Assembly (NCBI GenBank): GCA_017542065.1
Contig: JAFXXX010000003.1
Coordinates: forward strand, 12,049-76,048
Direction: 5' to 3'
From: Bacilli bacterium
Lineage (GTDB): Bacteria > Bacillota_I > Bacilli_A > RF39 > UBA660
DNA length: 64,000 bases
Shown: piece by piece, positions 8,399 to 64,000 of the stretch
How positions within the stretch are numbered: the stretch's first letter is position 1
Layout: each line of letters starts with the position of its first letter
The notes under the pieces: model-generated
Seen by the model: only the letters and a program-made list of their open reading frames with translations
What the model was told of the DNA's origin: nothing
The model's database searches: none
Program-made: the position numbers and the translations under genes

Positions 8399-8426
8399 AT
8401 ATCACCTTATAAAAAAACTTAATACA

Positions 8427-8618
8427 TTAATTAACATGTATTAAGCCGTTTTGAACTTCTTCTAAAGCCTTATCTAAACTCTTTTTAGCTTTATAATCTT
8501 TTTCTTTCATTTGATAATGTTTTGTTTCATCCATTTGAGTAGCTCTCTTAGCTGCTATATAAACAAGTTGATATTTTGAATTAACAATATTTAAAATTTT
8601 ATCAATTGAATATGTCAT
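8427..8618 (-). CDS. rpoZ: DNA-directed RNA polymerase omega subunit
   Basis: SKYQLVYIAAKRATQM and LDKALEEVQNGL match the B. subtilis RpoZ pattern (SKYTLV..ARRAREM, GKALEEIDAGL). Confidence 0.8.
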   Translation of the reverse strand: MTYSIDKILNIVNSKYQLVYIAAKRATQMDETKHYQMKEKDYKAKKSLDKALEEVQNGLIHVN

Positions 8619-8621
8619 AAC

Positions 8622-9323: not shown

Positions 9324-9387
9324 ATTACTAGCCTCCTATACTCATATTAATTATATCATATTTTTATAAAATTTTAACATTATTTTT

Positions 9388-10695
9388 TTAAAATGGTAAT
9401 TTCATATTTCCATTACTCATCATTTTCATCATCTTTTTAGATTCATCAAATTGTTTTAATAATCTATTAACTTCTTGAACAGAAGTACCTGATCCTTTAG
9501 CTATTCTTTCTTTTCTAGATGCTTTTAAAATATCAGGATTTCTTCTTTCTTCAGGTGTCATAGAAAGAACTATAGCTTCTACATGGCCCATTTGTTTAGG
9601 ATCTACTTTAATATCATTTAATTCCATCTTTTTAGCTCCTGGGATCATTTTAAGTAAACTTTCTATTGAACCCATTTTTTTAATTTGATTCATTTGTTTT
9701 AAGAAATCTTCTAGGTCATATTTACCTTTTTTCATTTTCTTATATGTATCCATAGCTTCATCTTCATTCATAACAGATTCAGCCTTTTCAATAAGAGACA
9801 TCATATCTCCCATACCTAGAATTCTACTAACCATTCTTTCAGGATCAAATGGTTCAAGTCCATCTAATTTTTCAGATGTACCTATAAACTTAATTGGAAT
9901 ACCAGTTAAGTATTTAGCAGATAATGCTACACCACCTCTAGTATCACCATCAAGTTTAGTAAGAATAGTTCCAGTAAGCGGTAACTTATCATTAAATCCT
10001 GTAATAACATTAATAGCATCTTGACCCATCATACTATCAATTACTAGCATTACTTCATTAGGTTTAACTTCATTATTGATATTCTCTAATTCATCCATTA
10101 GTTTTTCATCAATTTGTAATCTACCTGCAGTATCGATTAAGATATAATCTAAACCATTTTCTTTAGCATATTCAATTGAATCTTTAGCTATTTGAACTGG
10201 GTTCTTAGTACCCTCTTCAAATACAGGTATATTTAAACTTTTACCTAAAGTTTGTAATTGATTAATAGCAGCTGGTCTATAGATATCAGCAGCTACTAAT
10301 AATGGTTTCTTATTATATTTTTTTCTAAGTAAATTAGCAAGCTTACCAATAGTAGTAGTTTTACCTGAACCTTGAAGACCTACTAACATTAATATAGAAG
10401 GATTACCCTTAGTATATATTTCTGCTTTATCACTACCTAGTAACTCTAACAATTCGTCTTTTAATATTTTTAAGAATACTTCATCAGGTTTTAAACTTTT
10501 CTTAATTTCTTCGCCTAATGCTTTTTCTTTAACTTTATTAGTGAATTCTTTAACTACAGTATAGTTAACATCGGCTTCTAATAAAGCAAGTCTTACTTCT
10601 CTTAAAACATCTTGTATATTTTCTTCAGTAATAGATCCATATCCTCTAATCTTACCAATAGCAGAATCTAATCTATCTGATAAACTTTCAAACAT
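9388..10695 (-). CDS. ffh: Signal recognition particle protein Ffh
   Basis: GLQGSGKTTT, DTAGR, TKLDGD GTPase motifs plus a Met-rich C-terminal M domain. Confidence 0.95.
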   Translation of the reverse strand: MFESLSDRLDSAIGKIRGYGSITEENIQDVLREVRLALLEADVNYTVVKEFTNKVKEKALGEEIKKSLKPDEVFLKILKDELLELLGSDKAEIYTKGNPSILMLVGLQGSGKTTTIGKLANLLRKKYNKKPLLVAADIYRPAAINQLQTLGKSLNIPVFEEGTKNPVQIAKDSIEYAKENGLDYILIDTAGRLQIDEKLMDELENINNEVKPNEVMLVIDSMMGQDAINVITGFNDKLPLTGTILTKLDGDTRGGVALSAKYLTGIPIKFIGTSEKLDGLEPFDPERMVSRILGMGDMMSLIEKAESVMNEDEAMDTYKKMKKGKYDLEDFLKQMNQIKKMGSIESLLKMIPGAKKMELNDIKVDPKQMGHVEAIVLSMTPEERRNPDILKASRKERIAKGSGTSVQEVNRLLKQFDESKKMMKMMSNGNMKLPF

Positions 10696-38751: not shown

Positions 38752-41403
38752 TTATTTTCTCTTTTTTGATACATATATTAATGCAACCATTAATCCAGCT
38801 ATAAGAATTAATGTACCTGCAATAATTAAACCATATCTAATTAGTTTTCTACCAGTTTGAATTTCTATAATTAATTCAGCTTGTGCAGTAGAACCCTCTA
38901 ATTTCTTAGTTTGGTTAATAATAGTAGCAGATCCTTTAGCATAACCTTTTCTATCTAGTTTAATAACTGCACTATTATCTACATTAGCAAGTTCATATCC
39001 TTTAGGAGCTTCAATTTCAAGTATTCTATATGTAGTTCCTGGAGTCATATCTACAAATGTAGCAATACCATGAGATAAAGTAAATTGAACTTTACCATCT
39101 TCTGATTCTTTAAATACATTTGCTTGTGCTTGATATTGTCCTTCATTTTCTACAGATACTAATTTAATATCTTCATATTTATTAGTATCATCATTAAATC
39201 TTTGAATCTTGAATTTTCCACCAGATAAGTAATTACCATTTTCATCTACTTTATAGAAGTTAAATTCTTTAGTAGCATTAGAAATGCCTTCTGAACATGA
39301 TGCCTTATTATTAACAGTAGGTCCATCAGCTTTCATGTCTACTACTAACTTAGTATAAGCACCATCACCTTCAGGTAATACATATGGATCAATAGTTTCT
39401 ATTTCTTTTAAATAGTATGTTCCAACAGGAAGACTATTGATTTTAATATTACCATTAGCATCAGTAATAAATACTGTAGCACCGCTTATATCATTAGCAG
39501 TTCCAGAATATTGATATACTCCATTACTACTACTTGCTTTATAATATTTATCTTTTCCTTCATTTAATAAAACAAATTTAACACCTGCTAAAGGAAGACC
39601 TCCATTACCAGTTTTAATAATATTAACTTTAGTAATATAGTTCTTATAAGTTAATGTATTATTAACAGTTAAAGATGCATTCTTACATGTAGAATCATTC
39701 TTACAATCAAATATATCGTATTTATCTCCTACCTTAATATAATGCATTCTATCTTCTTCTTTAGAAGCTATTACATATGGACTAGGAGCAGCATGTTCAA
39801 CTACTTTATAAATTCCTTGTTCTAAGAATCTAATAGTATATGTAGAAAAATTATCATCTACTATACTTGTAACACTTCCATTTTCAGAATAACTATATAC
39901 ATTATTACTCTTATTAAATTTAACTTCAGTATTAAAGTTAGATCCTTTATAGATTTTGAATGTAACACCCTTTAATGGTTGATTACTTTCATTAACTTTA
40001 CTAATATTAAATGCTTTATAGTTATCTACAACTTTAACTTCAAATGCATGTTCAGTATCATTAAATGATGCTTGAACTTCACCAGTATTAGATGAACTAA
40101 TAGATCTAGTATTTAGGTTAATATTTAACTCAGTTTCATGAATCTTATCATATCCAAATGGTATATCAGTTTCATTAAGAAGATATATACCACTTCTTTC
40201 AAGTGAAACTTTACTAGTATCTCCATTAATATTAATCTTAACAGATGGATCATTCTTAAGAGTTAAAGTAAACTTAGAACCATCTATTCTAGATCCCTCT
40301 TGATTATATTTAACTATATATAATTGTGCTTCTTCTGTACCAACAGTAAACGATGCAGTATGAGTAGCTCCACCTTCACCATTGATTATTCTTTGCCACC
40401 ATTTATGTTCAGGGAAATCATAATACCACCATTTACTTGTTCCACTACCAACAACATAACTACAATTAATAGTTACATTATTAACAGGAACTGTAGAAGT
40501 AACTGTAGCATGGTCATTAGCAACAGAAACAGTTACGTTATCATTATTTACAGCATGGCAGTTAGAAGTAAATCCACCAAGTGCATTACTAATAACACCT
40601 GTTGTATATTTTTGTTGTTTTGAATCCCATCTCATAGTATAGTTTTTGAATAGTGCTGGAGCATAAGTATCTTCAGCTTTTCTTTTACTTCTATACTCTC
40701 TAGCAGCTTGAAGAGCTGCTTTATACTCTTTAAGCAAACTACTCTTTGGAGAAATAATAACATTATATGAACAACTAGAAGACATAGAACAAGCTTCAGG
40801 AACATCTTGAAGTCCTGTTCTTCCTCCACCCATTATTTCCCAAACAAGTATTTGCTTAACAAATATTTTTTCTTTTTCTGCTTTTGTACTAATTTTTTCA
40901 ATAGATGTAGTATGATCTTCAGAATAATGATATCCTGATGCTAATATATCTTGTAATGTTTCTACTTGTTCATCAGTAAGTGTAGCAGTAACATCACCAT
41001 CAATATTTCTTGCAACTAAACCTTCAAAATTATTATTGTAAACATATGCATCTAATTTAGGATGTCCTTCTTCATCAATAGCAATACCTCTATCTATACA
41101 ATATGCATGATAGTATTTACCATCAGATGACATAGCTTCATGGATATATTGTTTCTTTAATATACCAGTATGTTCATTTGGTCCTATATAGAACGATGGA
41201 GTTGAATCAGAACCCCAAACGTCCTTAATAGAAAATGATTTATTGTTATATTTATATGTATCAGAAATTACTTGGGCAGGACTACCCATTAATTTCGATA
41301 AGAAATTAAAGTTTAATCCTGCTTTCTTACCAAATACTACAGTAAATGGTATAGCAATCACTAATAATAAGACTAAGACATATAGTATTTTTTTCTTCTT
41401 CAT
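38752..41403 (-). CDS. Large surface protein: possible thioester (TQxA-type) domain plus four SpaA/Cna-B-like prealbumin-fold domains and a C-terminal sorting-signal-like anchor
   Basis: Signal peptide. YCID (C105) and KQILVW (Q187) resemble the thioester Cys/Gln motifs. Repeated G.(K/T)F.L...T...G...I..L..G.Y...E...P.GY modules. C-terminus IQTGRK + hydrophobic stretch + KKRK. ATG at 41403 with AGGTGA overlapping the upstream stop. Confidence 0.65.
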   Translation of the reverse strand: MKKKKILYVLVLLLVIAIPFTVVFGKKAGLNFNFLSKLMGSPAQVISDTYKYNNKSFSIKDVWGSDSTPSFYIGPNEHTGILKKQYIHEAMSSDGKYYHAYCIDRGIAIDEEGHPKLDAYVYNNNFEGLVARNIDGDVTATLTDEQVETLQDILASGYHYSEDHTTSIEKISTKAEKEKIFVKQILVWEIMGGGRTGLQDVPEACSMSSSCSYNVIISPKSSLLKEYKAALQAAREYRSKRKAEDTYAPALFKNYTMRWDSKQQKYTTGVISNALGGFTSNCHAVNNDNVTVSVANDHATVTSTVPVNNVTINCSYVVGSGTSKWWYYDFPEHKWWQRIINGEGGATHTASFTVGTEEAQLYIVKYNQEGSRIDGSKFTLTLKNDPSVKININGDTSKVSLERSGIYLLNETDIPFGYDKIHETELNINLNTRSISSSNTGEVQASFNDTEHAFEVKVVDNYKAFNISKVNESNQPLKGVTFKIYKGSNFNTEVKFNKSNNVYSYSENGSVTSIVDDNFSTYTIRFLEQGIYKVVEHAAPSPYVIASKEEDRMHYIKVGDKYDIFDCKNDSTCKNASLTVNNTLTYKNYITKVNIIKTGNGGLPLAGVKFVLLNEGKDKYYKASSSNGVYQYSGTANDISGATVFITDANGNIKINSLPVGTYYLKEIETIDPYVLPEGDGAYTKLVVDMKADGPTVNNKASCSEGISNATKEFNFYKVDENGNYLSGGKFKIQRFNDDTNKYEDIKLVSVENEGQYQAQANVFKESEDGKVQFTLSHGIATFVDMTPGTTYRILEIEAPKGYELANVDNSAVIKLDRKGYAKGSATIINQTKKLEGSTAQAELIIEIQTGRKLIRYGLIIAGTLILIAGLMVALIYVSKKRK

Positions 41404-41412
41404 ACTAATCAC

Positions 41413-44400
41413 CTACTCTCCGTTATTTCCTTGTGATCCAGTATTACCTGTATCAGTACCAGTATTAGGATCAGTTGTTTCTACTGGATTAGCATCTTCA
41501 AATGTAATTGAATTAAAATCAACACCAGATGTCTTTTCACCCATTAATATAGGTTGTTGTGCAGCCACTATATTAGTATATGTTCCACCTGTATTAGTAT
41601 CCAAATCAAGTACTAATTTAAAGTATTGTCTATCTCCTGGTAATAATAATTTATCTTGAAGACCTGTATAATATAGAACTCCATCATAAATTGTCCAGTC
41701 TTTATTTTCTTCTAAACTTCCATCAAATGTCATACCTGCTGGAACTAAGTCAGCAATTATTCCAATATAACCTGGGAAGTATTTAGTATTAACTATATCA
41801 AAGCTATAAGTTACTCTAAATTTAGTATTCTTAATATTTCTAATATCTATATTAACCTTAGTAGCTTTTTCATATTCATATGTCTTAACACCTTGACTAG
41901 ATGTTTGAACAATATTAGTTATATATTTATTAATTTCTACAGCAAAGTCTTTTCTAATTCTTAATCCTAAGTTTATATAATTCTTATTTTCAGAACCATT
42001 TTGACTAGTTAAAGTAATAATATCAGAAACAGCTTCATTATCAACTTGATTCTTAGCTATAGACTTAGAATTAACTTGCTTACTAGCATCTCCACCAGCA
42101 TATTTATTACTTGGTGTATATTTATTACCATCATATCTAAATAATACATAATAGTTTCCTGTATTTAAACCACTAAATGTATATGAACCATTAGCATCTG
42201 TTGATGTAGTAGCTACTAATTCATCATTTTCAGAATTAATATATGCATTTGGATTTGATGCATCATCTGCATTATATTCTGCATTATTTAATTTATATAA
42301 TTCTACTACTATATCCTTCATTTGGTCTTCACCAACTTCATAGATATCACTATAGTTATAATCTTCAAATACAAATCCAGATATTTGTCTACTATAAACT
42401 TCTACAAGTGATTCTGATGAATAGAAGAATATTCTACTACTTAATGCATTTGGATCACATGGTGTTTCAGGATCTTCATCATATCTTCCATCACACTCAG
42501 GAGCAAATCCATTAGGTCTATCTACTGCTAAAGTAAATCCATTATAATATGCATCTGCCTGAGCATTCTTAACTGGTGTAACAATTACATTAACTCCGTT
42601 TTCAGAAACAAAGTATGTATCAATATCCCAGTTTTCATCTTTAACAATCTTAATAGCTGTAGCTTCAACTTCAGTAGTTGGATTAGTCCATTTAGTCCAG
42701 TTAGTTGAACTATCAGAATTAATTAAGTTATTAATATCACTAATTACATTAGTAGCAGTATCAGTTGTATAGTATGCTGTGTAACCAGTTAAATTATCAT
42801 TAATTTTTACTTTATAAGTAGCATTTGTAAATTTCTTATTGTATGACTTATAGTTATAGTCTTCAATATATGGAAGCATATAATATAATGTTGCATTTTC
42901 ATAAGCATATCCTGCATTACTTGCATCACTAGAATTATTATAAGCTTTCATAGTATAAGTATATGGTTCTGCTTTTTCAATATATCTTGGAGCAGCATTA
43001 CCAAATGTGCTTATATAAGAACTGTTATAAAGAGTTATAGTATCAGAAACAGTAGTCTTATATGGAATAGATGTTCTATTATCTAATACTCTATGAATAT
43101 CACTATTATCTACTATATATCCTTCCATATCAGCAGAAGCACTAATTTCAGTTTGTGTTCCTGACTTAGTATTCATGAATATATCTGTAAATATAGATAA
43201 TGTATTAACAGCACCATTAGTTATTTCATCTCTTTCAAAATCATATACATAAATTATATAATCAGGATCATCATCAATAACTCTTGATGGTGTTTTTTCC
43301 ATTCTCTTAGAACTATCACCATTATTTACTAATATTTCTGCATATAAGTAATTTAATGTTCTTGGAATTGTAACAGCAATTCCTGCATGATCATATTCAA
43401 TAGTATCTATATCAGAAGATGCACTAACTTGAATTCTCCATTCAATTGGATAATCATAGAATGAAGTTTTAGGATAGTTATTAAAGTATGATACTACTGA
43501 AGGATTATTAACTCTAAATCCCATAATATGAACAGTATCACCTGAAATATTACATAATGCTTCACCATTACATGGATTAGTATTATTAGAAAGTAATAAT
43601 CTATTTTCAAAACTGTATTTACTTTTTCCATAGTTATTAACGTTCTTAGCATTAGTAACATCACTAGTATTAATATTCTTTGATAAATAATATAAATCTA
43701 AATCATTAGTTGTAGGATTCTTAAAGTATCCTGTTGATAAAGTAGATATTTGATATGAATGATCAATTAAACCAATTTGATTCTTTCTAATTTTACCTGC
43801 TAAAGATACTTTAGCTGTTAATGAAGCATTAGCATTCATTTCATCAGATGATTTATCACCAAATATTGCTTTAACAATTATTATTGGAAGATCAGATGTA
43901 TCTTCGTCTTGTAAACTCCATACGAACGGACTATTTTCACCAGTCTTTTCAACTATACATGGTCCGCCATAAAGGTTCATTATGTTTTCTGTAGTTAATC
44001 CATCAAATGATGCAGGACAACCAGCAACACCAGTTAAATCAAAGTATTCTGAAGTCCACTCACCTTGACCATATTTTAAACTAGCCATTGGAGCACCAAT
44101 AATACCACTATCTTCTTTAGTAATTAAGAATGCAGTAGGATCAATTTTAATATAGTTATCTAATTCTGATAAATCATCACCTTTACCATCAGTAGCATAA
44201 GCAATAGTTTCTACTACTCTAAATCTTTGATTGTAATTTAAATAAGCATTACCAGAAATTAATGGAGTTGCATCTCCAGGATCCTTTGATACTTCACCAG
44301 CGTATATATCAACTTGTGAAACAAAGCTACCAACGAATTTTTCATAATAATCTGTAACAGTAACAGTTCCACCTTGAAGCTTATTATATTCTGTTCCAGG

Positions 44401-45540
44401 AACAACTAAATTAGTTGTAGCAACATTAAATGTTCTATCATTTCTATCTGTTGCAGATCTACCTGCTTTAAGTTCAAATGAAGCAGAACCAACATATGAA
44501 CTATTACCATCATATTTTAAACTGCTAACAGTTAATAAATTATTTTCAAATGTAATTGTATTACCAAGTGATGGTAATTGATTAATACCATCTACGAATA
44601 TATCATATTGTTTTGAAGGATCTTTATATGCTGCCATAGAATTTTCAACATATTGAAGATTTAATACACTAGCATCTTCAGAAGCCCAGTTAACATTAAA
44701 TGAAACACTAGATGGAACATAAATACCAACAGTCTTTTCAACTTTAACACCAATACCTATTGGATAAGTCTTTTGTCCAACATTATCAGTAGAAGGAGCT
44801 CCTTGATATACCTCAACATCATAATCATATGTACCTGTCATTGTAGTTAAACAGTTAGTAACAGTATTAGGGCAAGTAACATTTCCTGTAGGATTAGCAG
44901 CAAATGCTTCTTTTTCATCTGGATTTAATTCCTCAATTGATTTACTATCAGCATCAGTAGCTTCCTTCATAATAACAATTGGAGTAAAGCTAGCACCAAC
45001 AGTTTGTGTATTAACATTTTCTAAAGTGAAACTAAACTCTGATGGATTTAAAGTGCTTGATGTAGGAATATTATGCATTGCAAAATGGAAATAACTATAA
45101 TTTTCTCCTAAAGTCTTAGAAGTTACACTTCCATCAGCACCAGAAGATGTTAATGTAGCATTAATATTCTTTGGAATAATAACATCAACAACAACGCTTC
45201 TACCTTCTACTGGAGTAGTTAATGTTTCAGTTTTATGTTCTAAAACATATTCTACGTTATATGTAATACTATCAAAGTTTCTAAGTACTCCATTAGAAGC
45301 AGATGCATCTTTACCATGAGTATCTGTATCAGCATCAAGTTCTGCATGAGCATCTGCAATTGACTTAACAACTGCACTATTATCTTTAATTTTTAATTTG
45401 TTTTCATATTCATCATCTGTAGCAAATACTCCATATAGAATAAATGAAGTTGCTATAGTAAATGCAATTATGAAAGCAATTACTTTGTGTTTATAAATAA
45501 AATCAATGGTTTTCCAAAAACCTTTCTTAATTTTTTCCAT
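41413..45540 (-). CDS. Giant secreted/anchored surface protein (1375 aa) with C-terminal SdrD-B/Cna-B-like and DUF11-like domains
   Basis: N-terminal signal anchor. ISGFVFEDYN...TDANGSYTFSGLNTGNYYVLF (SdrD B-like), then a DUF11-like beta-sandwich. No C-terminal anchor. The stop abuts the next gene's RBS. Confidence 0.65.
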   Translation of the reverse strand: MEKIKKGFWKTIDFIYKHKVIAFIIAFTIATSFILYGVFATDDEYENKLKIKDNSAVVKSIADAHAELDADTDTHGKDASASNGVLRNFDSITYNVEYVLEHKTETLTTPVEGRSVVVDVIIPKNINATLTSSGADGSVTSKTLGENYSYFHFAMHNIPTSSTLNPSEFSFTLENVNTQTVGASFTPIVIMKEATDADSKSIEELNPDEKEAFAANPTGNVTCPNTVTNCLTTMTGTYDYDVEVYQGAPSTDNVGQKTYPIGIGVKVEKTVGIYVPSSVSFNVNWASEDASVLNLQYVENSMAAYKDPSKQYDIFVDGINQLPSLGNTITFENNLLTVSSLKYDGNSSYVGSASFELKAGRSATDRNDRTFNVATTNLVVPGTEYNKLQGGTVTVTDYYEKFVGSFVSQVDIYAGEVSKDPGDATPLISGNAYLNYNQRFRVVETIAYATDGKGDDLSELDNYIKIDPTAFLITKEDSGIIGAPMASLKYGQGEWTSEYFDLTGVAGCPASFDGLTTENIMNLYGGPCIVEKTGENSPFVWSLQDEDTSDLPIIIVKAIFGDKSSDEMNANASLTAKVSLAGKIRKNQIGLIDHSYQISTLSTGYFKNPTTNDLDLYYLSKNINTSDVTNAKNVNNYGKSKYSFENRLLLSNNTNPCNGEALCNISGDTVHIMGFRVNNPSVVSYFNNYPKTSFYDYPIEWRIQVSASSDIDTIEYDHAGIAVTIPRTLNYLYAEILVNNGDSSKRMEKTPSRVIDDDPDYIIYVYDFERDEITNGAVNTLSIFTDIFMNTKSGTQTEISASADMEGYIVDNSDIHRVLDNRTSIPYKTTVSDTITLYNSSYISTFGNAAPRYIEKAEPYTYTMKAYNNSSDASNAGYAYENATLYYMLPYIEDYNYKSYNKKFTNATYKVKINDNLTGYTAYYTTDTATNVISDINNLINSDSSTNWTKWTNPTTEVEATAIKIVKDENWDIDTYFVSENGVNVIVTPVKNAQADAYYNGFTLAVDRPNGFAPECDGRYDEDPETPCDPNALSSRIFFYSSESLVEVYSRQISGFVFEDYNYSDIYEVGEDQMKDIVVELYKLNNAEYNADDASNPNAYINSENDELVATTSTDANGSYTFSGLNTGNYYVLFRYDGNKYTPSNKYAGGDASKQVNSKSIAKNQVDNEAVSDIITLTSQNGSENKNYINLGLRIRKDFAVEINKYITNIVQTSSQGVKTYEYEKATKVNIDIRNIKNTKFRVTYSFDIVNTKYFPGYIGIIADLVPAGMTFDGSLEENKDWTIYDGVLYYTGLQDKLLLPGDRQYFKLVLDLDTNTGGTYTNIVAAQQPILMGEKTSGVDFNSITFEDANPVETTDPNTGTDTGNTGSQGNNGE

Positions 45541-50730: not shown

Positions 50731-51144
50731 CTAAAGTAACTCTTTTAACTTATTAACTATTTCTATATCTGCACCTAACCATTCAACTGAATCTAATTCT
50801 TCTTTAGAAAGCCATTTCATTGATTCATGTTCTAACTTTTCTTCATCATGATAAACCATCTCTATATGATCATTTAATAATTCACAAAAATAAGTATGCA
50901 TTATCAAATGAAAATCAGGATTCTTATAATCATAATCTACAGTGCAAATATAATCTCCTACTTTAATATCAGCATTTAATTCCTCTTTTATTTCACGAAC
51001 TAATGCTTCTTCTTTTGTTTCACCAATTTCTGGTTTTCCACCTGGAAACTCCCACATACCTTTAAAATGTCCGTATCCTCTAGCAGTTCCAAGTATCTTA
51101 TTATCTTTCTTAATAACAGCTGCTACTACTTCTACTACTTTCAT
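50731..51144 (-). CDS. NUDIX hydrolase (MutT-like)
   Basis: NUDIX box GMWEFPGGKPEIGETKEEALVREIKEEL. Confidence 0.88.
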   Translation of the reverse strand: MKVVEVVAAVIKKDNKILGTARGYGHFKGMWEFPGGKPEIGETKEEALVREIKEELNADIKVGDYICTVDYDYKNPDFHLIMHTYFCELLNDHIEMVYHDEEKLEHESMKWLSKEELDSVEWLGADIEIVNKLKELL

Positions 51145-51728
51145 TATTTATTCCTACTTTCTTCAATATATTTTCTAATAATAAACTTAGATAGTATTAC
51201 ATCAGCATCAGCTAAATCATAATCAAGTAATTCTTCAATATTAACCCACTTATATTCTGAGTGAATTGGTGATGTAAATTCACCACTTACATAATCACAT
51301 TCATAGATTTTAAGATCTACTATATGACCTGGATATTCACATATACTATGAGTTAAATAATCATTAATATTAGCCTTAATTCCAAGAACTTCATCAAATG
51401 CTCTTTCTAGAGTTTTCTTTTCATCTTCAAGACCTTGTCTTCTTCCTCCTGGAAATTCCCATCTACCCTTTAGATGATCATCTTTATTTCTTCTAGCAAT
51501 TAAACATTTTCCATCCTTCATAATTAATGCACATACTACATCTAATATCTTTTTAGTATCAACTACATTAGTAACTGCAAATGGAAGTCCATTCTTCTTA
51601 ACTACTTGTTTTAAGAATAAATTAATTGCAGAACTCATTGATAAACCTAATTCTGTTAATACTAATGTTGCATCTTGTTTAACATCACTATCTACTTGAA
51701 TATTAATAGCACTTGTTTTATTAGCCAT
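51144..51728 (-). CDS. Fusion protein: RelB/DinJ-type antitoxin-like RHH N-domain + NUDIX hydrolase domain
   Basis: N-terminus INIQVDSDVKQDATLVLTELGLSMSSAINLFLKQVVKKNGLPF (DinJ pattern). C-terminus GRWEFPGGRRQGLEDEKKTLERAFDEVLG (NUDIX box). ATG at 51728 with GAGGTGAGG upstream. Confidence 0.7.
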   Translation of the reverse strand: MANKTSAINIQVDSDVKQDATLVLTELGLSMSSAINLFLKQVVKKNGLPFAVTNVVDTKKILDVVCALIMKDGKCLIARRNKDDHLKGRWEFPGGRRQGLEDEKKTLERAFDEVLGIKANINDYLTHSICEYPGHIVDLKIYECDYVSGEFTSPIHSEYKWVNIEELLDYDLADADVILSKFIIRKYIEESRNK

Positions 51729-51837
51729 TTTCCTCACCTCTTGAATAGATAATAACACCATAAAAAATGCTTGTCAATAGAAAACTACAAAAATACTACA
51801 ATTTTACTACATTACACTTTTATAATAAAAAAGAGAC

Positions 51838-53583: not shown

Positions 53584-53670
53584 CTATTATAATTATATCA
53601 TTAAATATCACTTGCATTATATAAAAATATGCTAAAAAAAGTGGTGAAATATTTGGCATGATAAACTAAT

Positions 53671-53705
53671 AAAAAAACGAACTATAATAGTTCGTTTTTT
53701 ATTTT
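53671..53705 (-). terminator. Strong terminator closing the DGR/effector operon (bidirectional shape)
   Basis: acgaactat-a-atagttcgt flanked by A7 and T6ATTTT. No plus-strand gene lies upstream, so it most likely serves the minus-strand operon. Confidence 0.7.
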
Positions 53706-53893
53706 CCAAATGGGGCGTTTATTTAGATACTTTTAAACTTTCCACCTTGTTTCACAAGTATAAAATTTTTCTATAAACATTATACTACAAAAATCTATAA
53801 ATTATCAACTTATATATTTCACCTTAGTATAGATTTTCCAACTTTATAATTATATATACAAAATATTAATATTTCATTTATCACATTTTATAT

Positions 53894-55408
53894 TTATCTA
53901 ATCTTCCTACTTGCATCTTCATCAACTTTACAATCATATAGTCTTTCAAGTTGCTTTGAAGTGATTTGAATTACAGTACCACAGCATGGTTTAAAATATC
54001 TATTACCATATACAAGCCAAATAACATTTTCATTTTTTAAATCATCTTTAGGCATAGTTCCAGGACAAGGTTCACCATCCGTAAAAACAATTTTATTTAT
54101 TTCTCTTTTCTTAGTAAAAGATCTAACAGCTAAATCCCAGTCTTCAGTCCAAGCAGAGTGTCCTCTTGCTCCGTTAGGTATTTCAAAATTGTCAATGTCC
54201 GACACATTTTTAATTTCTTTCATACCCCAAAACTTTTCATTAAAACATCCAACTTTTAATTTTGATTCTTTTAATATTGGTTTTATCATTCTTAAAAATG
54301 CTTTAACTAAATCCAGGTCAACAGAACCAGAAACATCTATCATAACTTCTGTTTCGGCTTCATCATCAATATCATTTTCTTCTAGTCTATAAGCATAATT
54401 ATTTTCAGCTATAGATCTTCTTTGTGACCATATTGTTTCAGTCTTTTCTACTTCTCTTCTTAATAAAATTCTCCAATCAAATTCTTCAGCACTTTCACCA
54501 ACTGAACCTAAATTAGTTTTATCAGAGAAACATGAATTAGTTAACATTTCATTTTTTAATCTTTCTAAGTTTTCTTTAGCTCTTGTTCTTCTTTCTTCAT
54601 AATTCTTTTCAAATTCTTCTTTTTCATCAAAATTATCAGACTCTAAATCATCGGTTGATAATTTATCATCACTTTGAGAACTATTAGATTTATCGCGGGA
54701 TTTATCTCCATTTTTTCTTTTTTCAAAAGCTTCTTCCCATAAACTATGATCATCACCAATTTGTTGAGCTTCACCATCATTCTTATCATTTGTTGATTTA
54801 TCATCTTGAGTGTTTGGACAATCTTGTTGATTTTCACCACCGTTATTGTTACTCTCTGTTTGATCTTGAGAATCTTGATTTTCACTATTTTGACTCTCAG
54901 TTTGTTCTTGTGAGTCTCCACTTTCTTTTTTATCTTGACTATCTTGTTCACTATTACTTTGATGTTCTTCCTGTTCTTTAGCCTTCTTTTCTTCTAAAAG
55001 CAATTGGTAAAACTCTTCCGCTGAATAATTCAAAGCCTCAGGTCTATTAACATATCCCTCTTTAATAATAAATCCGTCTCTTTCAAGATTAGCGTTTATT
55101 ATAGCATCGGTTGCTATATTCCATGTATCCATATCACGTTTTTCACCATTTTTATCTTCAAGTCTAAATGCATGAGCAAATTTAATATGCATTAATTCAT
55201 GTGCAATAAGAAATAATCTATCTGCCTCGCTTAAACCTGCTAAGTATTCTGGATCAAAGAAAATATTTTTTCCATCAGTTGCCGCAGTATGACATTTTAA
55301 ATCCGTTCTATAGGAAATATTTGCTGATGCTATCTCACTTGCAAATCTTGGATATCTTAACATCATTAATCGTTTAGTTTCGTAAAGTAATTTTGTCATT
55401 GCATCCAT
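53894..55408 (-). CDS. Putative Zn-metallopeptidase (HExxH, DUF2201_N-type) + acidic low-complexity linker + VWA-like domain; the usual partner of MoxR-class AAA+ ATPases
   Basis: HELMH at 55187-55201. The N-terminal pattern RYPRFA...TDGKNIFFDPEYL...FLIAHELMH is typical of DUF2201_N. MIDAS-like DVSGS in VMIDVSGSVD. ATG at 55408, 6 nt after AGGGGA, which overlaps the upstream stop. Confidence 0.8.
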   Translation of the reverse strand: MDAMTKLLYETKRLMMLRYPRFASEIASANISYRTDLKCHTAATDGKNIFFDPEYLAGLSEADRLFLIAHELMHIKFAHAFRLEDKNGEKRDMDTWNIATDAIINANLERDGFIIKEGYVNRPEALNYSAEEFYQLLLEEKKAKEQEEHQSNSEQDSQDKKESGDSQEQTESQNSENQDSQDQTESNNNGGENQQDCPNTQDDKSTNDKNDGEAQQIGDDHSLWEEAFEKRKNGDKSRDKSNSSQSDDKLSTDDLESDNFDEKEEFEKNYEERRTRAKENLERLKNEMLTNSCFSDKTNLGSVGESAEEFDWRILLRREVEKTETIWSQRRSIAENNYAYRLEENDIDDEAETEVMIDVSGSVDLDLVKAFLRMIKPILKESKLKVGCFNEKFWGMKEIKNVSDIDNFEIPNGARGHSAWTEDWDLAVRSFTKKREINKIVFTDGEPCPGTMPKDDLKNENVIWLVYGNRYFKPCCGTVIQITSKQLERLYDCKVDEDASRKIR

Positions 55409-55418
55409 AAACAATCCC

Positions 55419-55808
55419 CTAAATTGATACTACACAAAAATGATAAATTTCTGAAGAAATATTTTTTAATGATTCTTTATTTTCTATAGATAATACTATT
55501 ATTATATTATCTGGTAATGTATAACCAAGAAGTTCTCTATCTTTAATTATTGGAACATATTTATTTTGTTCATCAACTGATAAAGAATCAAAATTAGTAA
55601 CAACAAAATACCCTATTTCACCATTTTTTGAAACAATATCTACCTTTTCTTTAATTATTGGATTACCCATTTTAGCACCAAACAACCATGAATCATTTAT
55701 TCTTGAATCCATATGCACAGCATTTCCAAGTTTGTTTAAATCACTATTCTTTACCACAACGCAAGTAGCTTTACTACCTCTTTGTAATTCAATTAACTCT
55801 TTATTCAT
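55419..55808 (-). CDS. 129-aa protein resembling the Walker-B-to-sensor-1 half of an AAA_5 ATPase, without a P-loop (hypothetical)
   Basis: The start ATG overlaps the target-gene TGA (ATGA at 55805-55808). YFVVTNFDSLSVDEQNKYVPIIKDRELLGYTLPDNIIIVLSIEN parallels IVIMLDELLNVKPAVQSLVYTLVLNRLVETGKGLKLPANTVIVATGN of the upstream ATPase. Confidence 0.5.
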   Translation of the reverse strand: MNKELIELQRGSKATCVVVKNSDLNKLGNAVHMDSRINDSWLFGAKMGNPIIKEKVDIVSKNGEIGYFVVTNFDSLSVDEQNKYVPIIKDRELLGYTLPDNIIIVLSIENKESLKNISSEIYHFCVVSI

Positions 55809-57961
55809 AGTCTCTTACCTGCACTTTCTTCATTAATCATTGTCATTTCTTGAAGTTCTGTTATTCTCATTATTTTTCTTTCATCATTACCTGCCCAACA
55901 AATATCATATAATTGTAGATATTCTGGATCACAATATTTTCTAATAAAATCTCTACATTTTCCGACTTGATTTTCATCAGCAAGCAATAATGATGTTACA
56001 CAAGCAAATCTTTCATTAATATCTCTTGGTAAATCAGCTTGTGAAAACGAATCTGTAACAACTTCATCAACTGACATTGTAGGTATATTATAAAAATCAA
56101 AGAACTCTCTAGCCCATTCCTCGCGAAGTTTAGAATTGATAGATACCTCTAACATGTGCTCTACATCTTTTCCAATAAATTTACCTTTTCTTAAATCTTC
56201 TTCAAAAGCATAAAGAGTATTTGAAATTGATGTCCAACCACGAGGGTCATTAGTTCTTCCTTTACAACCATTTTGGTCTAATCTCTTTTCTCCCACTTCA
56301 GGTTCCTCATAAAAATAACCCATGTCAGAAATATGTTCACTTTTTCCACTTTGAATATATTTAGATAGTATATATCCAATTACTGATGGATGAATTTTAT
56401 TTGGAATTGCATATTCATTTATCCATTCACCAACTTTTGGTTGCATATCTAAAATGTGATCAAATCTTTTTTCAAGTGGCTCTGCTAAATCTTCAGCTAC
56501 GCTTGAATACTTCCTTTGGTTACCCGTTGCAACTATAACAGTATTAGCAGGAAGCTTTAATCCTTTTCCAGTTTCAACTAATCTATTTAAAACTAGAGTA
56601 TAGACTAATGATTGAACAGCTGGTTTAACGTTTAATAATTCATCTAGCATTATAACTATCTTTTCATTGCTGTTTTTAGATCTTTCATATATTTCGTCAG
56701 CTAAATCATAAAGGTTTTGGACATTCTCACTAATTAATCTTCTTTCCTCATTAGTTGCACAAGCAAGTAAAGCTTGCTTAGCAAAATCAGGTGGAATATT
56801 TTGCCCAGTTTGAAGATTCATGGAACCCACAACTTTTTCTGGAAACATATTATTCGTTAATTTTATATATATTAAATTTGGATATAAAGCTTTAATCCTT
56901 TCAGTTTTACCAATACCACTTGGTCCTCTAAGTAATACTGATTGTCCTGCTTCTATCCATGAATGAATAATCTCTGTATCAGTCATTCTTCGTCTATCTT
57001 GAGGACTAGTAGTATCAGGATTTAATCTTTGTAATCTTGATTTTCTTTCTTCTGATTCTTGATTCCATTCTGTGTCTGCTTGTACATAAGATGACAACTC
57101 GTCTTCATCTAACAACATACGAGGTGCAGTTGCTCTACATATTTCTTTTGAAAAATATCCGTCCATAAATTTCTTTATATCAGTTTTATCAAAGTCTCCA
57201 TCATACTCCGTATCATTTTGGAATTGAACTCCAGAAAAAAGGATCTTTTTTGATAGTGCTACATTTGCTTTTTCGTCTACTAACCATTTTATTGGTTCAA
57301 CAAAAATCCAATATGGTTTACCGTCTTCTATTACTCTACCATCAGATAGTGTTTCACCATTTCCATTAAAACCGGCAACAACTCGAATATATTTTTTACC
57401 TTTGTATGCAAACTCTTCATATTCTACTGGTTCAAAATTAGTATCATATTCATCATAGTTAACTGAATCTGTAGTATATACTTTTCCCGTTCTTACTAGA
57501 TCTATTTCAAATGGAACATCCTCGTTATAACACTCTTCTAATTTCTTTGAAAGGGTTTCATCAACGATTGTTTGCGGATATTCTCCATATTCAACTTCCT
57601 TAATATCAAACTTGCCTCTCACTTCGTTCGAGGCGATTAATTTGATTGATGAGTAAGGTAAAGCTGGACGAGCCCCATCAGGACGATCGTCGACATCGTC
57701 GCGGTAAGCACGACCATTGAAATCAACAACGCGCGCGCCTGAACTATATCCCGGATAAGAAGTTTTTGTCCACCACCATCCTGTTCTTTCCTTTTTATCT
57801 TCAGTTTCTTCTCCAACGTTAGTGTAAGTATCATTAGAATATGCATTCCCTAAAAGAATAGAAAAGTCCGTAACAGCACATTTAGTTCCATATTTTTTAA
57901 TTATATCTAATTGCTCATCTCCAAAGATTTGCTCATATGTTAATAAAGTCATATTATCCAT
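55805..57961 (-). CDS. DGR target protein: N-terminal VR-bearing lectin-like domain fused to a MoxR/AAA_5-type ATPase (718 aa, no signal peptide or TM)
   Basis: Contains the VR (aa 75-100). WWWTKTS...GARPAL lectin-like signature. Walker A GPSGIGKT (56903-56926), Walker B VIMLDEL, ATGN sensor-like segment. Confidence 0.85.
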   Translation of the reverse strand: MDNMTLLTYEQIFGDEQLDIIKKYGTKCAVTDFSILLGNAYSNDTYTNVGEETEDKKERTGWWWTKTSYPGYSSGARVVDFNGRAYRDDVDDRPDGARPALPYSSIKLIASNEVRGKFDIKEVEYGEYPQTIVDETLSKKLEECYNEDVPFEIDLVRTGKVYTTDSVNYDEYDTNFEPVEYEEFAYKGKKYIRVVAGFNGNGETLSDGRVIEDGKPYWIFVEPIKWLVDEKANVALSKKILFSGVQFQNDTEYDGDFDKTDIKKFMDGYFSKEICRATAPRMLLDEDELSSYVQADTEWNQESEERKSRLQRLNPDTTSPQDRRRMTDTEIIHSWIEAGQSVLLRGPSGIGKTERIKALYPNLIYIKLTNNMFPEKVVGSMNLQTGQNIPPDFAKQALLACATNEERRLISENVQNLYDLADEIYERSKNSNEKIVIMLDELLNVKPAVQSLVYTLVLNRLVETGKGLKLPANTVIVATGNQRKYSSVAEDLAEPLEKRFDHILDMQPKVGEWINEYAIPNKIHPSVIGYILSKYIQSGKSEHISDMGYFYEEPEVGEKRLDQNGCKGRTNDPRGWTSISNTLYAFEEDLRKGKFIGKDVEHMLEVSINSKLREEWAREFFDFYNIPTMSVDEVVTDSFSQADLPRDINERFACVTSLLLADENQVGKCRDFIRKYCDPEYLQLYDICWAGNDERKIMRITELQEMTMINEESAGKRL
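57664..57738 (-). repeat. DGR variable repeat (VR)
   Basis: 75 nt aligned without gaps to 59283-59357. 59/75 identical, and all 16 mismatches fall where the TR has A on the coding (minus) strand. Encodes ARVVDFNGRAYRDDVDDRPDGARP. Confidence 0.93.
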
Positions 57962-57994
57962 TTATAATCACCATATATATCATAACATAAATTC

Positions 57995-59059
57995 CTATTC
58001 TTTGACATATTTTTGGACAAATTTAAAGCTTTTATCATCTTCAAAGGGGAAAACCTCATCTTTTAATCTTTTACTTTCAGCAGTCCACTCTATATGATTA
58101 TAGAACGCATTTTTTCTTTGATAGACATATTCATCATCTACAAGTCCATTATTATATATTTTATATAAAGTCTTAAGATGTTTCTTCATTCGTTGTTTTG
58201 AAGAATGCCTTAATTTTACAATTATTTTACCATTACTATTTATAATATGCCTGTATCCCAAAAAATCAATACCATTTTTAGTCATCCCTATCTGAGTTTT
58301 ATCGTTTAATTCTAGGTCTAATATATTGTTACAATATTCTTCTATTTTTTTCTTACACAATGACAAATATTCTTTATCTTTATGTATTAAAATCATATCA
58401 TCCATATATCTCACATAATGTTTTATTTTTAATTGTTCCTTAATAAAATGATCAACTCCATTTAGGTATAAAAGTGCAAACCATTGACTTGTTTGGTTAC
58501 CTAAAGGAAGCCCTTTAGTTGCATTATCAGGTTGTTCTTTAATAAGTTTTTTCATAATCCACATTTCATCATCGGAAAAGTCAATCTTTTCTAGCATACT
58601 TATCAAAATATCATGGTTTATACTTGGAAAATATTTACAAATATCACACTTTAAGAAATATATATTATTATCTTTACTCTTCATATACTCATTTCTTAAA
58701 AATATATGTAATCGATTAATTGCAAAAGTAGTCCCTTTATTTTTTCTACATGCACAATTATCATATATTAACTTCACTTCAATCTTGTCTCTTAAAACAA
58801 TGTCACAAAAGCATCTAACCATTACCCTATCTTTAAAGGGTAGGGCTTCAATCAATCTCTCTTTTGGTTCGTAGATATAGAACTTTTTATACTTACCAAG
58901 TTTATAAGTTTTATTTATTAATTCCTTGCTTAAATTGCTTATATTAACGGAAAGATTTGATTCAAATCTTATAACCTCCCCTTTATGTTGCTTTGAATTT
59001 CTACAATGTTTATATGCACTATATAGATTTTCAAATGAAAATATTTCACTCAAATTCAT
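57995..59059 (-). CDS. DGR reverse transcriptase
   Basis: RT motifs including LPLGNQTSQ ((I/L)GxxxSQ, diagnostic for DGR RTs as I recall) and YMDD. ATG at 59059, 8 nt after GGAGG (the TTG at 59074 is rejected). Lies between the TR and the target gene. Confidence 0.92.
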   Translation of the reverse strand: MNLSEIFSFENLYSAYKHCRNSKQHKGEVIRFESNLSVNISNLSKELINKTYKLGKYKKFYIYEPKERLIEALPFKDRVMVRCFCDIVLRDKIEVKLIYDNCACRKNKGTTFAINRLHIFLRNEYMKSKDNNIYFLKCDICKYFPSINHDILISMLEKIDFSDDEMWIMKKLIKEQPDNATKGLPLGNQTSQWFALLYLNGVDHFIKEQLKIKHYVRYMDDMILIHKDKEYLSLCKKKIEEYCNNILDLELNDKTQIGMTKNGIDFLGYRHIINSNGKIIVKLRHSSKQRMKKHLKTLYKIYNNGLVDDEYVYQRKNAFYNHIEWTAESKRLKDEVFPFEDDKSFKFVQKYVKE

Positions 59060-59438
59060 AATATTTACCTCCAAATAAAATGAACACCCCTTATAACGCG
59101 CAAAGAGTTAAAACCCGTTGGTTGTGTGAGTGTTTTTTTATTTTTCTATCGCACTAAGATTTAATCTGTTAGCGATTGGAAAAGAAGAAAATTCCTTCAC
59201 CTTACAATACTGATATATTTTACTTAAAATATATTTCTCTGATCTGTTTTTTGAATTATAACTAATTCCTTCAAAAGTGAATCTGGACGAGCCCCATTAT
59301 TACGATTGTTGACATTGTTGTTGTTATCATTACCATTGTTATTAACAACGCGCGCGCGAGTCAAGAGAGTGGCTCTAAAAAACGCAACGACACAAAAACA
59401 AATTTTCTCCTTAATTAAAGGCCTTTCAACCTAAAATC
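59060..59438 (-). ncRNA. DGR RNA region (81-nt leader + 75-nt TR + 223-nt spacer up to the RT start)
   Basis: Non-coding interval between avd and RT that contains the TR. By analogy with the Bordetella phage BPP-1 DGR, TR plus the downstream spacer form the template-primer RNA. Transcript ends are not determinable here. Confidence 0.6.
59283..59357 (-). repeat. DGR template repeat (TR)
   Basis: Coding-strand sequence GCGCGCGCGTTGTTAATAACAATGGTAATGATAACAACAACAATGTCAACAATCGTAATAATGGGGCTCGTCCAG. In the VR frame it reads ARVVNNNGNDNNNNVNNRNNGARP, the AAY-rich design typical of TRs. Confidence 0.93.
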
Positions 59439-60023
59439 CTAATTTTTATTTTTCCATCTCTCATCATCACTTTTCTTCCAACTCGTGATTAGATTAATGG
59501 CTTCAGCAAGTTGCATTGAAATTTGTTTATATTGCCTTGTTAAAATACAACCTGATGATTCTGCAACCATAGAAACATAACCCAATAATTTCAGTTTAAC
59601 AATAGCTTCTCTTTGATAACTCTCTCTTTTTTCTTTATTTAAAGCAGAATCAATTCTAATAAAATTTGCCTTTAATAAATATTCTATCGTATCTAAGCAA
59701 TAATTCTGCATTCTATTAACAAAAACTCCTCGAAATTTCTTAGGAGATTTTTCGGTTATAGTAATTACATAAGCACATAATTTCTTCACTACGGTAATTA
59801 CAACTAGATCTTTTGCATTAAATGGGAGTTTATCTATTATTTTTATTTCATTATCTTCCACCTCAGCTTTTTCTTTTTCCCTTTTGGAATTAAATTTTCT
59901 ACCTTCAGCTATTGCAATTACTTTTTTTGTTTCAATAATATCTTCTACATTATTTGCGCTCTTAGTAGTTATTTCTATCTCTTTTGGGATTTTTAAATTA
60001 TTATTCCTACTTACTTGTAACAC
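59439..60023 (-). CDS. avd: Avd-like accessory variability determinant (four-helix-bundle type) with an N-terminal extension
   Basis: The C-terminal ~125 aa (LPFNAKDLVVITVVKKLCAYVITITEKSPKKFRGVFVNRMQNYCLDTIEYLLKANFI...LITSWKKS) fits the basic helical Avd pattern. Position is immediately upstream of the TR. GTG at 60023, 5 nt after GGAGGA, is preferred to the ATG at 60059. Confidence 0.7.
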   Translation of the reverse strand: MLQVSRNNNLKIPKEIEITTKSANNVEDIIETKKVIAIAEGRKFNSKREKEKAEVEDNEIKIIDKLPFNAKDLVVITVVKKLCAYVITITEKSPKKFRGVFVNRMQNYCLDTIEYLLKANFIRIDSALNKEKRESYQREAIVKLKLLGYVSMVAESSGCILTRQYKQISMQLAEAINLITSWKKSDDERWKNKN

Positions 60024-60076
60024 AGTATTCCTCCAATCCAAAACAAACACAAGATACAATTGCTTTATATAATATA

Positions 60077-61600: not shown

Positions 61601-63511
<1,911 letters not shown>

Positions 63512-63543: not shown

Positions 63544-63819
63544 TTAATTAATTGACTCATTGTTATATTTTTCTGTTTTATTATTTTTTCTAGATGATTT
63601 CTTTTCTTCTTGTTTAGACTTAACTTCATTGTATTCCTCCTTTTTATTTACATAATCACTTTCACATTTAAGGATTCTTTTATCACATTCGTTAATAATT
63701 ATCTTGTGTTCTTCTTCTGTTAATAAACTTTTTTCTTTATATAATCTGTCTATAATATTTTTTATATGTTTTAGATATAAAACCTCATTTATTGTTTCAT
63801 CTAATCTAATCTTATTCAT
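63544..63819 (-). CDS. Small K/E-rich hypothetical protein upstream of the recombinase
   Basis: ORF only. Possibly a recombination directionality or regulatory factor judging by position alone. Confidence 0.35.
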   Translation of the reverse strand: MNKIRLDETINEVLYLKHIKNIIDRLYKEKSLLTEEEHKIIINECDKRILKCESDYVNKKEEYNEVKSKQEEKKSSRKNNKTEKYNNESIN

Positions 63820-64000
63820 TTAATATTTCCTTTCGATTTACAAAAAAAGAGGAGACAGCAGTACCTAAAAGTCTATGTACTACTGACTCCTCTAAATAAT
63901 CGATATTATAAATAAATATTTTTTGTTTGTTTTTAATCATAGATGTACCTCCATTTCTAGAGTTACCTCTTTCATTGGTTATTTATAATATCACTTTTAT

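Follow-up and report, generated by a model that had tools for sequence, protein, structure and literature searches.

A diversity-generating retroelement targeting a MoxR-like AAA+ ATPase on a mobilizable island of gut and rumen Bacilli: a candidate intracellular conflict system

A 64,000-nucleotide stretch of DNA from a Bacilli bacterium (assembly GCA_017542065.1, contig JAFXXX010000003.1, positions 12,049 to 76,048), called the window below, carries on its minus strand a diversity-generating retroelement (DGR) whose target gene encodes an AAA+ ATPase. The DGR comprises the accessory protein Avd, a template repeat (TR), and a reverse transcriptase (RT). The corresponding variable repeat (VR) lies in the target gene, which is followed by the genes for a 129-residue protein (p129) and for a protein joining a metallopeptidase to a VWA domain (the VWA-peptidase). 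An earlier note, made from the letters alone, described these genes as a new system in which a continually re-randomised receptor is coupled through an AAA+ motor to a peptidase effector. The analysis reported here upholds a conserved unit with an active DGR; it also finds two things that the earlier note had missed, namely that the genes are the cargo of an island integrated at tRNA-His and that about half of the related units have no DGR.

Locus and gene order

The main features of the cassette, in the order of the genes, are as follows.

59439-60059, minus strand: Avd, a 206-aa open reading frame (ORF); probable start GTG 60023, giving ~194 aa; phrog_3206, 4e-17
59274-59357, minus strand: TR, found by repeat comparison; in-frame stop absent
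57995-59074, minus strand: DGR RT; RVT_1, 1.4e-18; phrog_1423, 1e-106; probable start ATG 59059
55805-57961, minus strand: DGR target, 718 aa, from the ORF list and domain calls
57655-57738, minus strand: VR, found by repeat comparison, encoding target aa 76-103
56447-56938, minus strand: AAA_5 core of the target; AAA_5, 29 bits; phrog_1297, 2e-32
55419-55808, minus strand: p129, the 129-aa ORF, from the ORF list and a fold search
53894-55414, minus strand: VWA-peptidase, 506 aa, from the ORF list; probable start ATG 55408

Avd, TR, RT, target, p129, and VWA-peptidase are thus collinear on the minus strand (region 53894-60059), and the ORF list and domain calls agree with the earlier note on gene order, strand, and ORF sizes. 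The tight spacing it described is also as stated. The target ATG lies 33 nt past the RT stop, the target TGA and the p129 ATG overlap as ATGA, and the Shine-Dalgarno sequence of the VWA-peptidase (AGGGG) overlaps the TAG stop of p129; at the head of the cassette, the probable GTG start of Avd (60023) sits six bases after a GGAGG. Judged from the ATGA overlap, p129 appears to be translationally coupled to the target. A search of the whole 64-kb window with Rfam gave two tRNAs and nothing else, and the fold of the spacer between TR and RT is unremarkable (z -1.5).

The retroelement and its recent activity

The RT translation contains the LGNQTSQ and YMDD motifs of DGR-type RTs. In Avd, the characteristic fold occupies the C-terminal 110 aa and is preceded by a conserved N-terminal extension to which no function is assigned; the matches to Pfam bAvd and NCBIfam DivGenRetAVD fall below the cut-offs of these models. 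TR and VR are 77% identical over 84 nt, and all 17 core mismatches (17/17) fall at TR adenines, which would happen by chance with a probability of ~1e-8 given adenines at about one third of positions. Read in the frame of the target, the TR gives ARVV-NNN-G-NDNNNN-V-NN-R-NN-GARP; its 12 AAY codons and one GAT contain 25 mutable adenines and correspond to 13 mutable target codons (residues 80-82, 84-89, 91-92, and 94-95). By our arithmetic (15^12 x 4), roughly 5e14 protein variants are possible. The 3′ end of the VR is GC-rich and resembles an initiation of mutagenic homing (IMH) site, GGGGCTCGTCCAG.

Two near-identical elements allow the recent history of the VR to be read. The first, in a Bacilli metagenome-assembled genome (MAG) from sheep jejunum (locus L006), is 99.7% identical to the window over 10.2 kb, with 27 differences. 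Five of the 27 lie in the 84-nt VR, all five at TR-adenine sites, and the two TRs are identical. The second, in a Bacilli MAG from water-buffalo omasum (L042), differs from the window at 34 positions of the target gene, 21 of them in the 78-nt VR core; 20 of these 21 fall at TR-adenine sites, and the remaining one, a C to T change, is mirrored in the L042 TR. Differences among near-identical elements that concentrate in the VR at TR-adenine sites point to a flow of information from TR to VR after the copies diverged. These comparisons, which sustain the claim that the DGR targets the AAA+ gene and re-randomises a surface of its product, indicate that the DGR is active, and recently so, through mutagenic retrohoming in nature.

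Aside from the VR, the last 1.2 kb of the island (window 53669-54876 against L042 13041-14250) are 92% identical between the window and L042, and the rest is 99% identical. The less similar stretch encodes the C-terminal half of the VWA-peptidase and includes the non-coding 3′ end, and the step in identity suggests a recombination patch.

The target: a variable domain fused to an ATPase

The 718-residue target consists of a DUF6273-like domain bearing the VR (aa 1-105), a beta-rich middle part (aa 110-275), a disordered linker (aa 278-307), and an AAA_5 domain with a C-terminal helical region (aa 330-718). An N-terminal position of the VR is rare among DGR targets (PMC5758913). The structure model of residues 1-330 is confident, with a predicted local distance difference test score (pLDDT) of 83; in it, aa 1-105 form a small alpha/beta domain in which the VR makes a beta-hairpin and one further strand. 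Foldseek gave no credible fold match of this N-terminal model in the PDB and, in BFVD, weak matches to DUF6273 proteins and nothing else.

The AAA_5 assignment scores 29 bits against a cut-off of 22, and both the Walker A motif GPSGIGKT (346-353) and the Walker B residues DE (440-441) are invariant among homologues. Phage relatives of the ATPase are annotated as MoxR. A sequence search of the PDB with the target profile, or with its AAA half alone, returned nothing. The N-terminal two-domain module of 277 residues matches 1,721 representative clusters (P0288-P0437 among the proteins listed), mostly stand-alone proteins of ~300 aa, and it is also found in tandem copies or fused to ankyrin or DUF4116 repeats (P0293, P0316). 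Since the module is so widespread and the ATPase matches phrog_1297 and phage MoxR proteins, the target can be regarded as a common DGR-type binding module fused to a phage-like MoxR-type ATPase.

No protein of the unit has a hydrophobic segment or a signal-like N-terminus, which agrees with the earlier view of the proteins as cytoplasmic. The lack of export signals, together with the fusion to an ATPase, which implies it, makes a cytoplasmic location of the machine plausible.

The partner proteins

No family match was found for p129. Its structure model (pLDDT 84) retrieves with Foldseek the AAA+ alpha/beta core of FlrC, NtrC1, RFC, and ClpC (E 5e-5, probability 1.0), and the earlier description of the 129-aa ORF as an AAA fragment is borne out by this search. 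p129 has no intact Walker A motif (P-loop). A profile-profile comparison with the target gave a weak match of 33 columns (probability 11%), too weak to settle the identity of p129, which was therefore decided by the structure search. According to the model, p129 is a stand-alone degenerate AAA+ core and is predicted to be catalytically dead.

The VWA-peptidase had been described as an HExxH peptidase, an acidic linker, and a VWA domain with a DVSGS motif, and each part was recovered. The N-terminal metallopeptidase domain (H72, E73, H76, H81) matches DUF2201_N at 9e-24 and resembles the minigluzincin MJ1213 selecase (8e-5), the only meaningful PDB match of the protein. Selecase-family peptidases are known to be latent. 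The linker that follows is ~160 aa long, acidic, and of low complexity, with a net charge of -24, and its length differs among homologues. The C-terminal domain is VWA-like and carries the metal ion-dependent adhesion site (MIDAS) motif DVSGS (360-364) and a TDG (445-447); its match to DUF2201 is sub-threshold (E 0.025), and phrog_1314 matches the protein in two stretches. In 35 homologues, DVSGS, TDG, H72, H76, and H81 are invariant, and E73 is kept in all but one. NCBIfam has nothing for the three effector-side proteins, and functional work on DUF2201, or on a DGR together with DUF2201, was not found in the literature.

Conservation of the unit across genomes

A scan of one genome per species recovered 74 loci with a relative of the target, all 74 of them from gut or rumen MAGs of Bacilli, Clostridia, Christensenellales, and 'Tenericutes'. 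Partners were counted among the 57 loci with at least 3 kb of downstream sequence: the VWA-peptidase is present in 53 of them and p129 in 48. A full-length RT lies 37-646 nt upstream of the target gene in 26 loci, 24 of which also have Avd. When only the 38 loci with the N-terminal module and enough upstream sequence are considered, 20 have a full RT and four more have RT fragments. Adenine-biased TR/VR pairs were recovered in related loci. Linkage in other genomes, which the earlier note had proposed as a check, is thus well attested, and the gene neighbourhoods indicate that target, p129, and VWA-peptidase are a conserved unit, not chance neighbours. The identity of the RTs to the RT of the window (50-72%) is similar to the divergence of the targets, which suggests that the association of the DGR with the triad is old.

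The composition of the unit varies. In Clostridia lineages, an ORF of ~155 aa without a family match lies between target and p129 (34 loci, e.g., L045 12222-12683), so that the unit there is a tetrad; in the window, where this ORF is absent, it is a triad. Four loci (L013 6909-12226, L021, L080 10001-15313, and L083 6907-12217) have a tandem of two VR-bearing AAA+ paralogues grouped around a single p129/155-aa pair and a single VWA-peptidase, and in L013 and L021 both VRs derive from a single TR. A domain of this kind, undiversified, is also retained at the N-terminus of more distant relatives. In one species (L001-L004 and L084-L086), the position of the DGR (about 8200-9730, upstream of the target) is taken by an IS3-family element inside a UPF0236 transposase gene. 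The VR of this RT-less L001/L084 lineage is frozen, with one of 51 between-strain nucleotide differences in the VR; a DGR acting on it in trans was considered and is ruled out by the frozen VR.

The TRs of nine loci (L008, L009, L011, L030, L039, L041, L045, L066, and L079) contain an in-frame stop (TAA or TGA) at one VR codon position. In four of the nine, the cognate VR reads TGG, TGC, TCG, or TGT at this codon and is open. Because the VR is N-terminal, retrohoming in these related loci could toggle the whole system on and off besides diversifying it.

The island and its surroundings

An island of ~10.65 kb carries the cassette of the window as its sole cargo; besides the DGR and the triad, it contains a MobV relaxase, a large serine recombinase, and two small ORFs. 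The features of the island outside the cassette are the following.

53672-53700, minus strand: terminator-like hairpin, a 13-bp stem followed by a T run
53709-53717, strand not assigned: attR-side direct repeat CGCCCCATT, found by repeat comparison with L006 and L042
60077-61498, minus strand: MobV/Pre-family relaxase; Mob_Pre, 7e-15
61601-63511, minus strand: large serine recombinase, the island integrase; Resolvase, 5.5e-33, Recombinase, Zn_ribbon_recom
63544-64000, minus strand: left part of the island within the window; a 91-aa ORF (63544-63819), then sequence toward a 92-aa ORF and attL/tRNA-His beyond the window

The island is integrated in the 3′ end of tRNA-His with the direct repeat CGCCCCA(TT), and the attL copy lies inside the tRNA-His 3′ end, ~400 nt past the end of the window. 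The same island is present, 98-99.7% identical, in the two other ruminant-gut Bacilli MAGs (L006 and L042), and the flanks of L042 differ from those of the window. In L042, the island begins within the final bases of tRNA-His (3493-3568), a second copy of CGCCCCA(TT) stands at its opposite end, and a similar hairpin follows its own attR; homology with the window ends at 53669, and beyond the repeat and the hairpin the two are unrelated. The L006 contig corresponds exactly to the island and starts and ends with CGCCCCATT. Circularity of this contig was rejected: its terminal repeat is only 9 nt long and was read as the att core, not as an assembly overlap. Taken together, the integrase, the relaxase, the insertion in a tRNA gene, the direct repeats, and the differing contexts mark the island, as far as sequence can tell, as an integrative mobilizable element.

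The hairpin at 53672-53700 is the sole terminator-like site in 10.5 kb, in line with the earlier statement that a single terminator closes the unit. Because it lies outside attR (53709-53717), it is probably the displaced original terminator of tRNA-His, which now also closes the operon. The best promoter-like match of the region, TTGATA-18-TATAAT (11/12), is at 53779-53808 on the minus strand, facing outward from the stretch between the last gene and attR; transcription from it could cross the joined ends of an excised circle or enter the host flank. Promoter-like consensus matches in the region are no commoner than in shuffled sequence.

Megablast of the 10-kb element found no match among PLSDB plasmids or INPHARED phages. 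A scan of IMG/VR viral contigs turned up phage proteins with the AAA part alone, at 21-27% identity, and nothing closely related; a prophage origin was rejected on these grounds. In L073, the cassette sits on a different island, one that encodes two serine recombinases and a C5 methylase along with a MobA/VirD2 relaxase. Genes adjoining the triad elsewhere encode AbiQ/ToxN toxins (L013, L040, and L080), a TIR-WD40 protein (L082), and a patatin-like protein (L001).

Otherwise the window consists of ordinary chromosomal DNA, with genes for PNPase, RNase J, Der, and a HerA-like ATPase. Outside the island, at 50731-51761, two NUDIX-domain ORFs overlap by one base, and in the upstream one an N-terminal RelB-antitoxin domain is fused to NUDIX (RelB, 1.7e-11; NUDIX_4, 2.4e-14). 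Adjacent ORFs of 886 and 1375 aa (window 38752-45540), with SpaA and SdrD-B-like domains, are Gram-positive pilin or adhesin genes.

Relation to known systems

Kaur, Burroughs, Iyer, and Aravind (2020) linked DGRs to the MoxR/vWA VMAP-ternary conflict systems (PMC7159879), and Doré et al. (2024) proposed a scheme in which sensing falls to the DGR target, relay to MoxR, and execution to a peptidase (PMC10907252). DGR sensors combined with MoxR, vWA, and peptidases are therefore already published as a concept, and to call the cassette a new system was an overstatement; its architecture, in contrast, is different. What is shared is that the DGR diversifies the ligand-binding domain of a predicted cytoplasmic protein and that the same sensor–motor–effector reading is proposed. 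In VMAP-ternary systems, the VR belongs to a C-terminal FGS/CLec domain on the vWA protein or on STAND NTPases, whereas here it belongs to an N-terminal DUF6273-like domain on the AAA+ protein. Their peptidase is trypsin- or caspase-like and is carried by the separate VMAP protein, which has a peptidase, cyclase, or adaptor domain; here the peptidase is minigluzincin-like and fused to vWA, the third protein is p129, an AAA+ core predicted to be dead, and a VMAP protein was not seen. Their hosts are multicellular cyanobacteria, Chromatiales, and actinobacteria, while the cassettes described here occur in gut or rumen Bacilli and Clostridia, on small mobile islands. Two defining features of the VMAP-ternary class thus fail, since no diversified FGS/CLec domain is found on the vWA component and the 74 loci do not come mainly from multicellular prokaryotes; for this reason, the cassette is not counted as a member.

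A second relative is a phage pair of a MoxR AAA+ protein and a metallopeptidase-vWA protein, found in N4-like, rV5-like, and jumbo phages (Iyer et al., 2021; PMC7824862). The AAA_5 ATPase matches phrog_1297 (2e-32) and the DUF2201_N-peptidase-VWA protein matches phrog_1314 (1e-43), so the pairs are homologous. They differ in that the phage ATPases are ~300 aa long and come with no N-terminal binding module, DGR, or p129, and identity is 20-35%. The N-terminal domain, for its part, is like that of tentaclins, which were described with other DUF6273 DGR targets of gut phages by Baykov et al. (2023; PMC10743442). Both have an N-terminal DUF6273-like domain with the VR as a beta-hairpin and a gut Firmicutes setting, but tentaclins are virion proteins that run into Ig domains, whereas here an AAA+ ATPase follows, in a cellular operon and with a predicted cytoplasmic location.

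The combination of an active and an inactive AAA+ with an acidic linker and a MIDAS-bearing VWA domain, which would couple the motor to a client, is also what we take to be that of BchI/BchD, CobS/CobT, CbbQ/CbbO, and RavA/ViaA. The chelatase-type and CbbQ/CbbO-type machines presumably have no peptidase and no hypervariable domain and serve a fixed client.

Proposed mechanism and alternative explanations

The following mechanism may be proposed. Avd, the TR RNA, and the error-prone RT would rewrite, again and again, 13 codons of a beta-hairpin exposed on the N-terminal DUF6273/C-lectin-like domain of the target, a cytoplasmic ATPase of the AAA_5 (MoxR/CobS-like) type. This ATPase would work with two dedicated partners, the presumably dead AAA+ core p129 and the VWA-linked, probably latent metallopeptidase. 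Variable domains arrayed on an AAA+ ring would capture a protein ligand, and ATP-driven remodelling via the VWA adaptor would bring the peptidase into action, on the captured ligand or on another substrate. Variants would arise at the level of the population, and useful ones would be selected. Such a sensor–motor–peptidase logic is plausible, and the same logic has been proposed for other DGR loci (PMC10907252).

As to what the machine is for, a conflict function is favoured because the distribution is patchy and mobile, because Abi and TIR genes are occasional neighbours, and because there is no fixed client that would need so many variants. That the cassette is an intracellular anti-phage or anti-mobile-element system is given roughly even chances. 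Several observations weigh against this reading. PADLOC (PADLOC-DB 2.0) found no match for the VWA-peptidase, p129, or Avd, gave only a partial DolB match for the target (E 1.7e-6, 85 residues), and assigned the RT to generic RT models, so that this check, suggested at the outset, brought up no known defence system at the locus. About half of the triads are without a DGR, from which it follows that hypervariation is not essential to the machine. A stop remains in the VR of five MAG consensus sequences (L009, L011, L030, L041, and L066), truncating the AAA+ protein at about residue 85-95, so the gene may often be off or dispensable. Several triads lie among housekeeping genes without defence neighbours; L083 is one such locus, and in L045 aspartyl-tRNA synthetase genes flank the cassette. 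Foldseek against the PDB gave no confirmation of a C-lectin fold for the VR domain, and the support for the 'lectin' of the earlier note is only indirect. Finally, a role as chaperones of virion assembly has been proposed for distant phage homologues of this AAA/VWA-peptidase pair (PMC7824862).

Within the conflict reading, a more specific version is tentative and on balance unlikely: a clonally selected, non-suicidal proteolytic immunity, in which every cell would present a single hairpin variant on its AAA+ ring, a bound invader protein would be fed to the VWA-tethered metallopeptidase, the cell would survive, and its variant would spread, with the TR stops of related loci as an ON/OFF switch limiting self-reactivity. 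By inference, cleavage of the ligand without suicide fits the clonal selection of VR variants in unicellular hosts better than abortive infection does.

The cassette could alternatively serve the element rather than the host. As a counter-defence or establishment factor, its diversified domain would, on arrival in a new host, capture host defence or rival-element proteins, and the AAA+/VWA-peptidase would inactivate them. It is here the sole cargo of a small mobilizable island and is found again on the unrelated island of L073, the nearest non-diversified AAA/VWA-peptidase relatives are phage genes, and, as hosts vary, a diversifying binder would help an element that changes them. We nevertheless consider this explanation improbable, for a large number of triads, whether or not they have a DGR, lie on the chromosome away from any mobility genes, the close family was not found in IMG/VR viral contigs, and the AbiQ neighbours resemble defence islands; moreover, slow DGR variation at the population level fits poorly with a need that is immediate on cell entry.

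MoxR/VWA pairs are established as chaperone-like systems. The machine might accordingly have no part in conflict and act in chaperoning or maturation, like RavA-ViaA, CbbQ-CbbO, or phage assembly chaperones, with a client-binding domain diversified to track a variable endogenous client. The persistence of triads without a DGR and the housekeeping surroundings of some loci agree with this, as does the proposal for the phage MoxR/vWA-metallopeptidase pair (PMC7824862). A fixed endogenous client, however, gives no reason for binding-site variants on the scale of ~1e14. The patchy distribution and the movement between islands and sites are unlike those of housekeeping chaperones, and no conserved client gene was seen in the neighbourhoods examined; a role of this kind has accordingly a low probability.

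An abortive-infection switch, in which ligand binding turns the peptidase on host proteins and kills the infected cell, is the classical VMAP-type reading and the model of Kaur et al. (PMC7159879) and Doré et al. (PMC10907252) for DGR/MoxR/vWA systems. The AbiQ toxins adjoining some loci are consistent with it. So is the selecase type of the peptidase, given the latency of that family. Suicide in unicellular gut bacteria would, however, remove the carriers of a useful VR and so block its selection, and the hosts are not the multicellular lineages for which the model was argued (PMC10907252); such a switch seems rather doubtful here.

An ordinary DGR adhesin or receptor-binding target, or a DGR that simply happens to lie next to an unrelated AAA+/VWA pair, is very improbable: most cellular DGR targets are indeed surface proteins (PMC8144416), DUF6273 VR domains are typical of gut-phage receptor-binding proteins (PMC10743442), and stand-alone proteins of ~300 aa with the N-terminal 277-aa module are widespread, but the VR is inside the AAA+ gene itself, a gene structure that already contradicts this explanation, there is no signal peptide or transmembrane segment and an ATPase needs cytoplasmic ATP, and dozens of genomes share both the fusion and the order of the genes.

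Significance

That DGRs provide bacteria with anticipatory, antibody-like recognition inside the cell is still a hypothesis, and the loci behind it are large and complex and belong to organisms that are difficult to handle. The cassette described here may be a minimal version of such a system, with six genes in ~6.3 kb, one operon, no membrane parts, and the variable domain fused to the motor itself. Its family occurs widely in Firmicutes of the gut and rumen and is mobile in nature. Since the cassette is minimal, widespread, and mobile, the hypothesis can be tested directly by heterologous expression and point mutants. If clonally selected immunity proves to be its function, the cassette would be a programmable 'degrade-what-you-bind' machine carried on a mobile unit of ~6 kb, and, if the peptidase acts on the captured ligand, it would offer a natural template for programmable targeted proteolysis.

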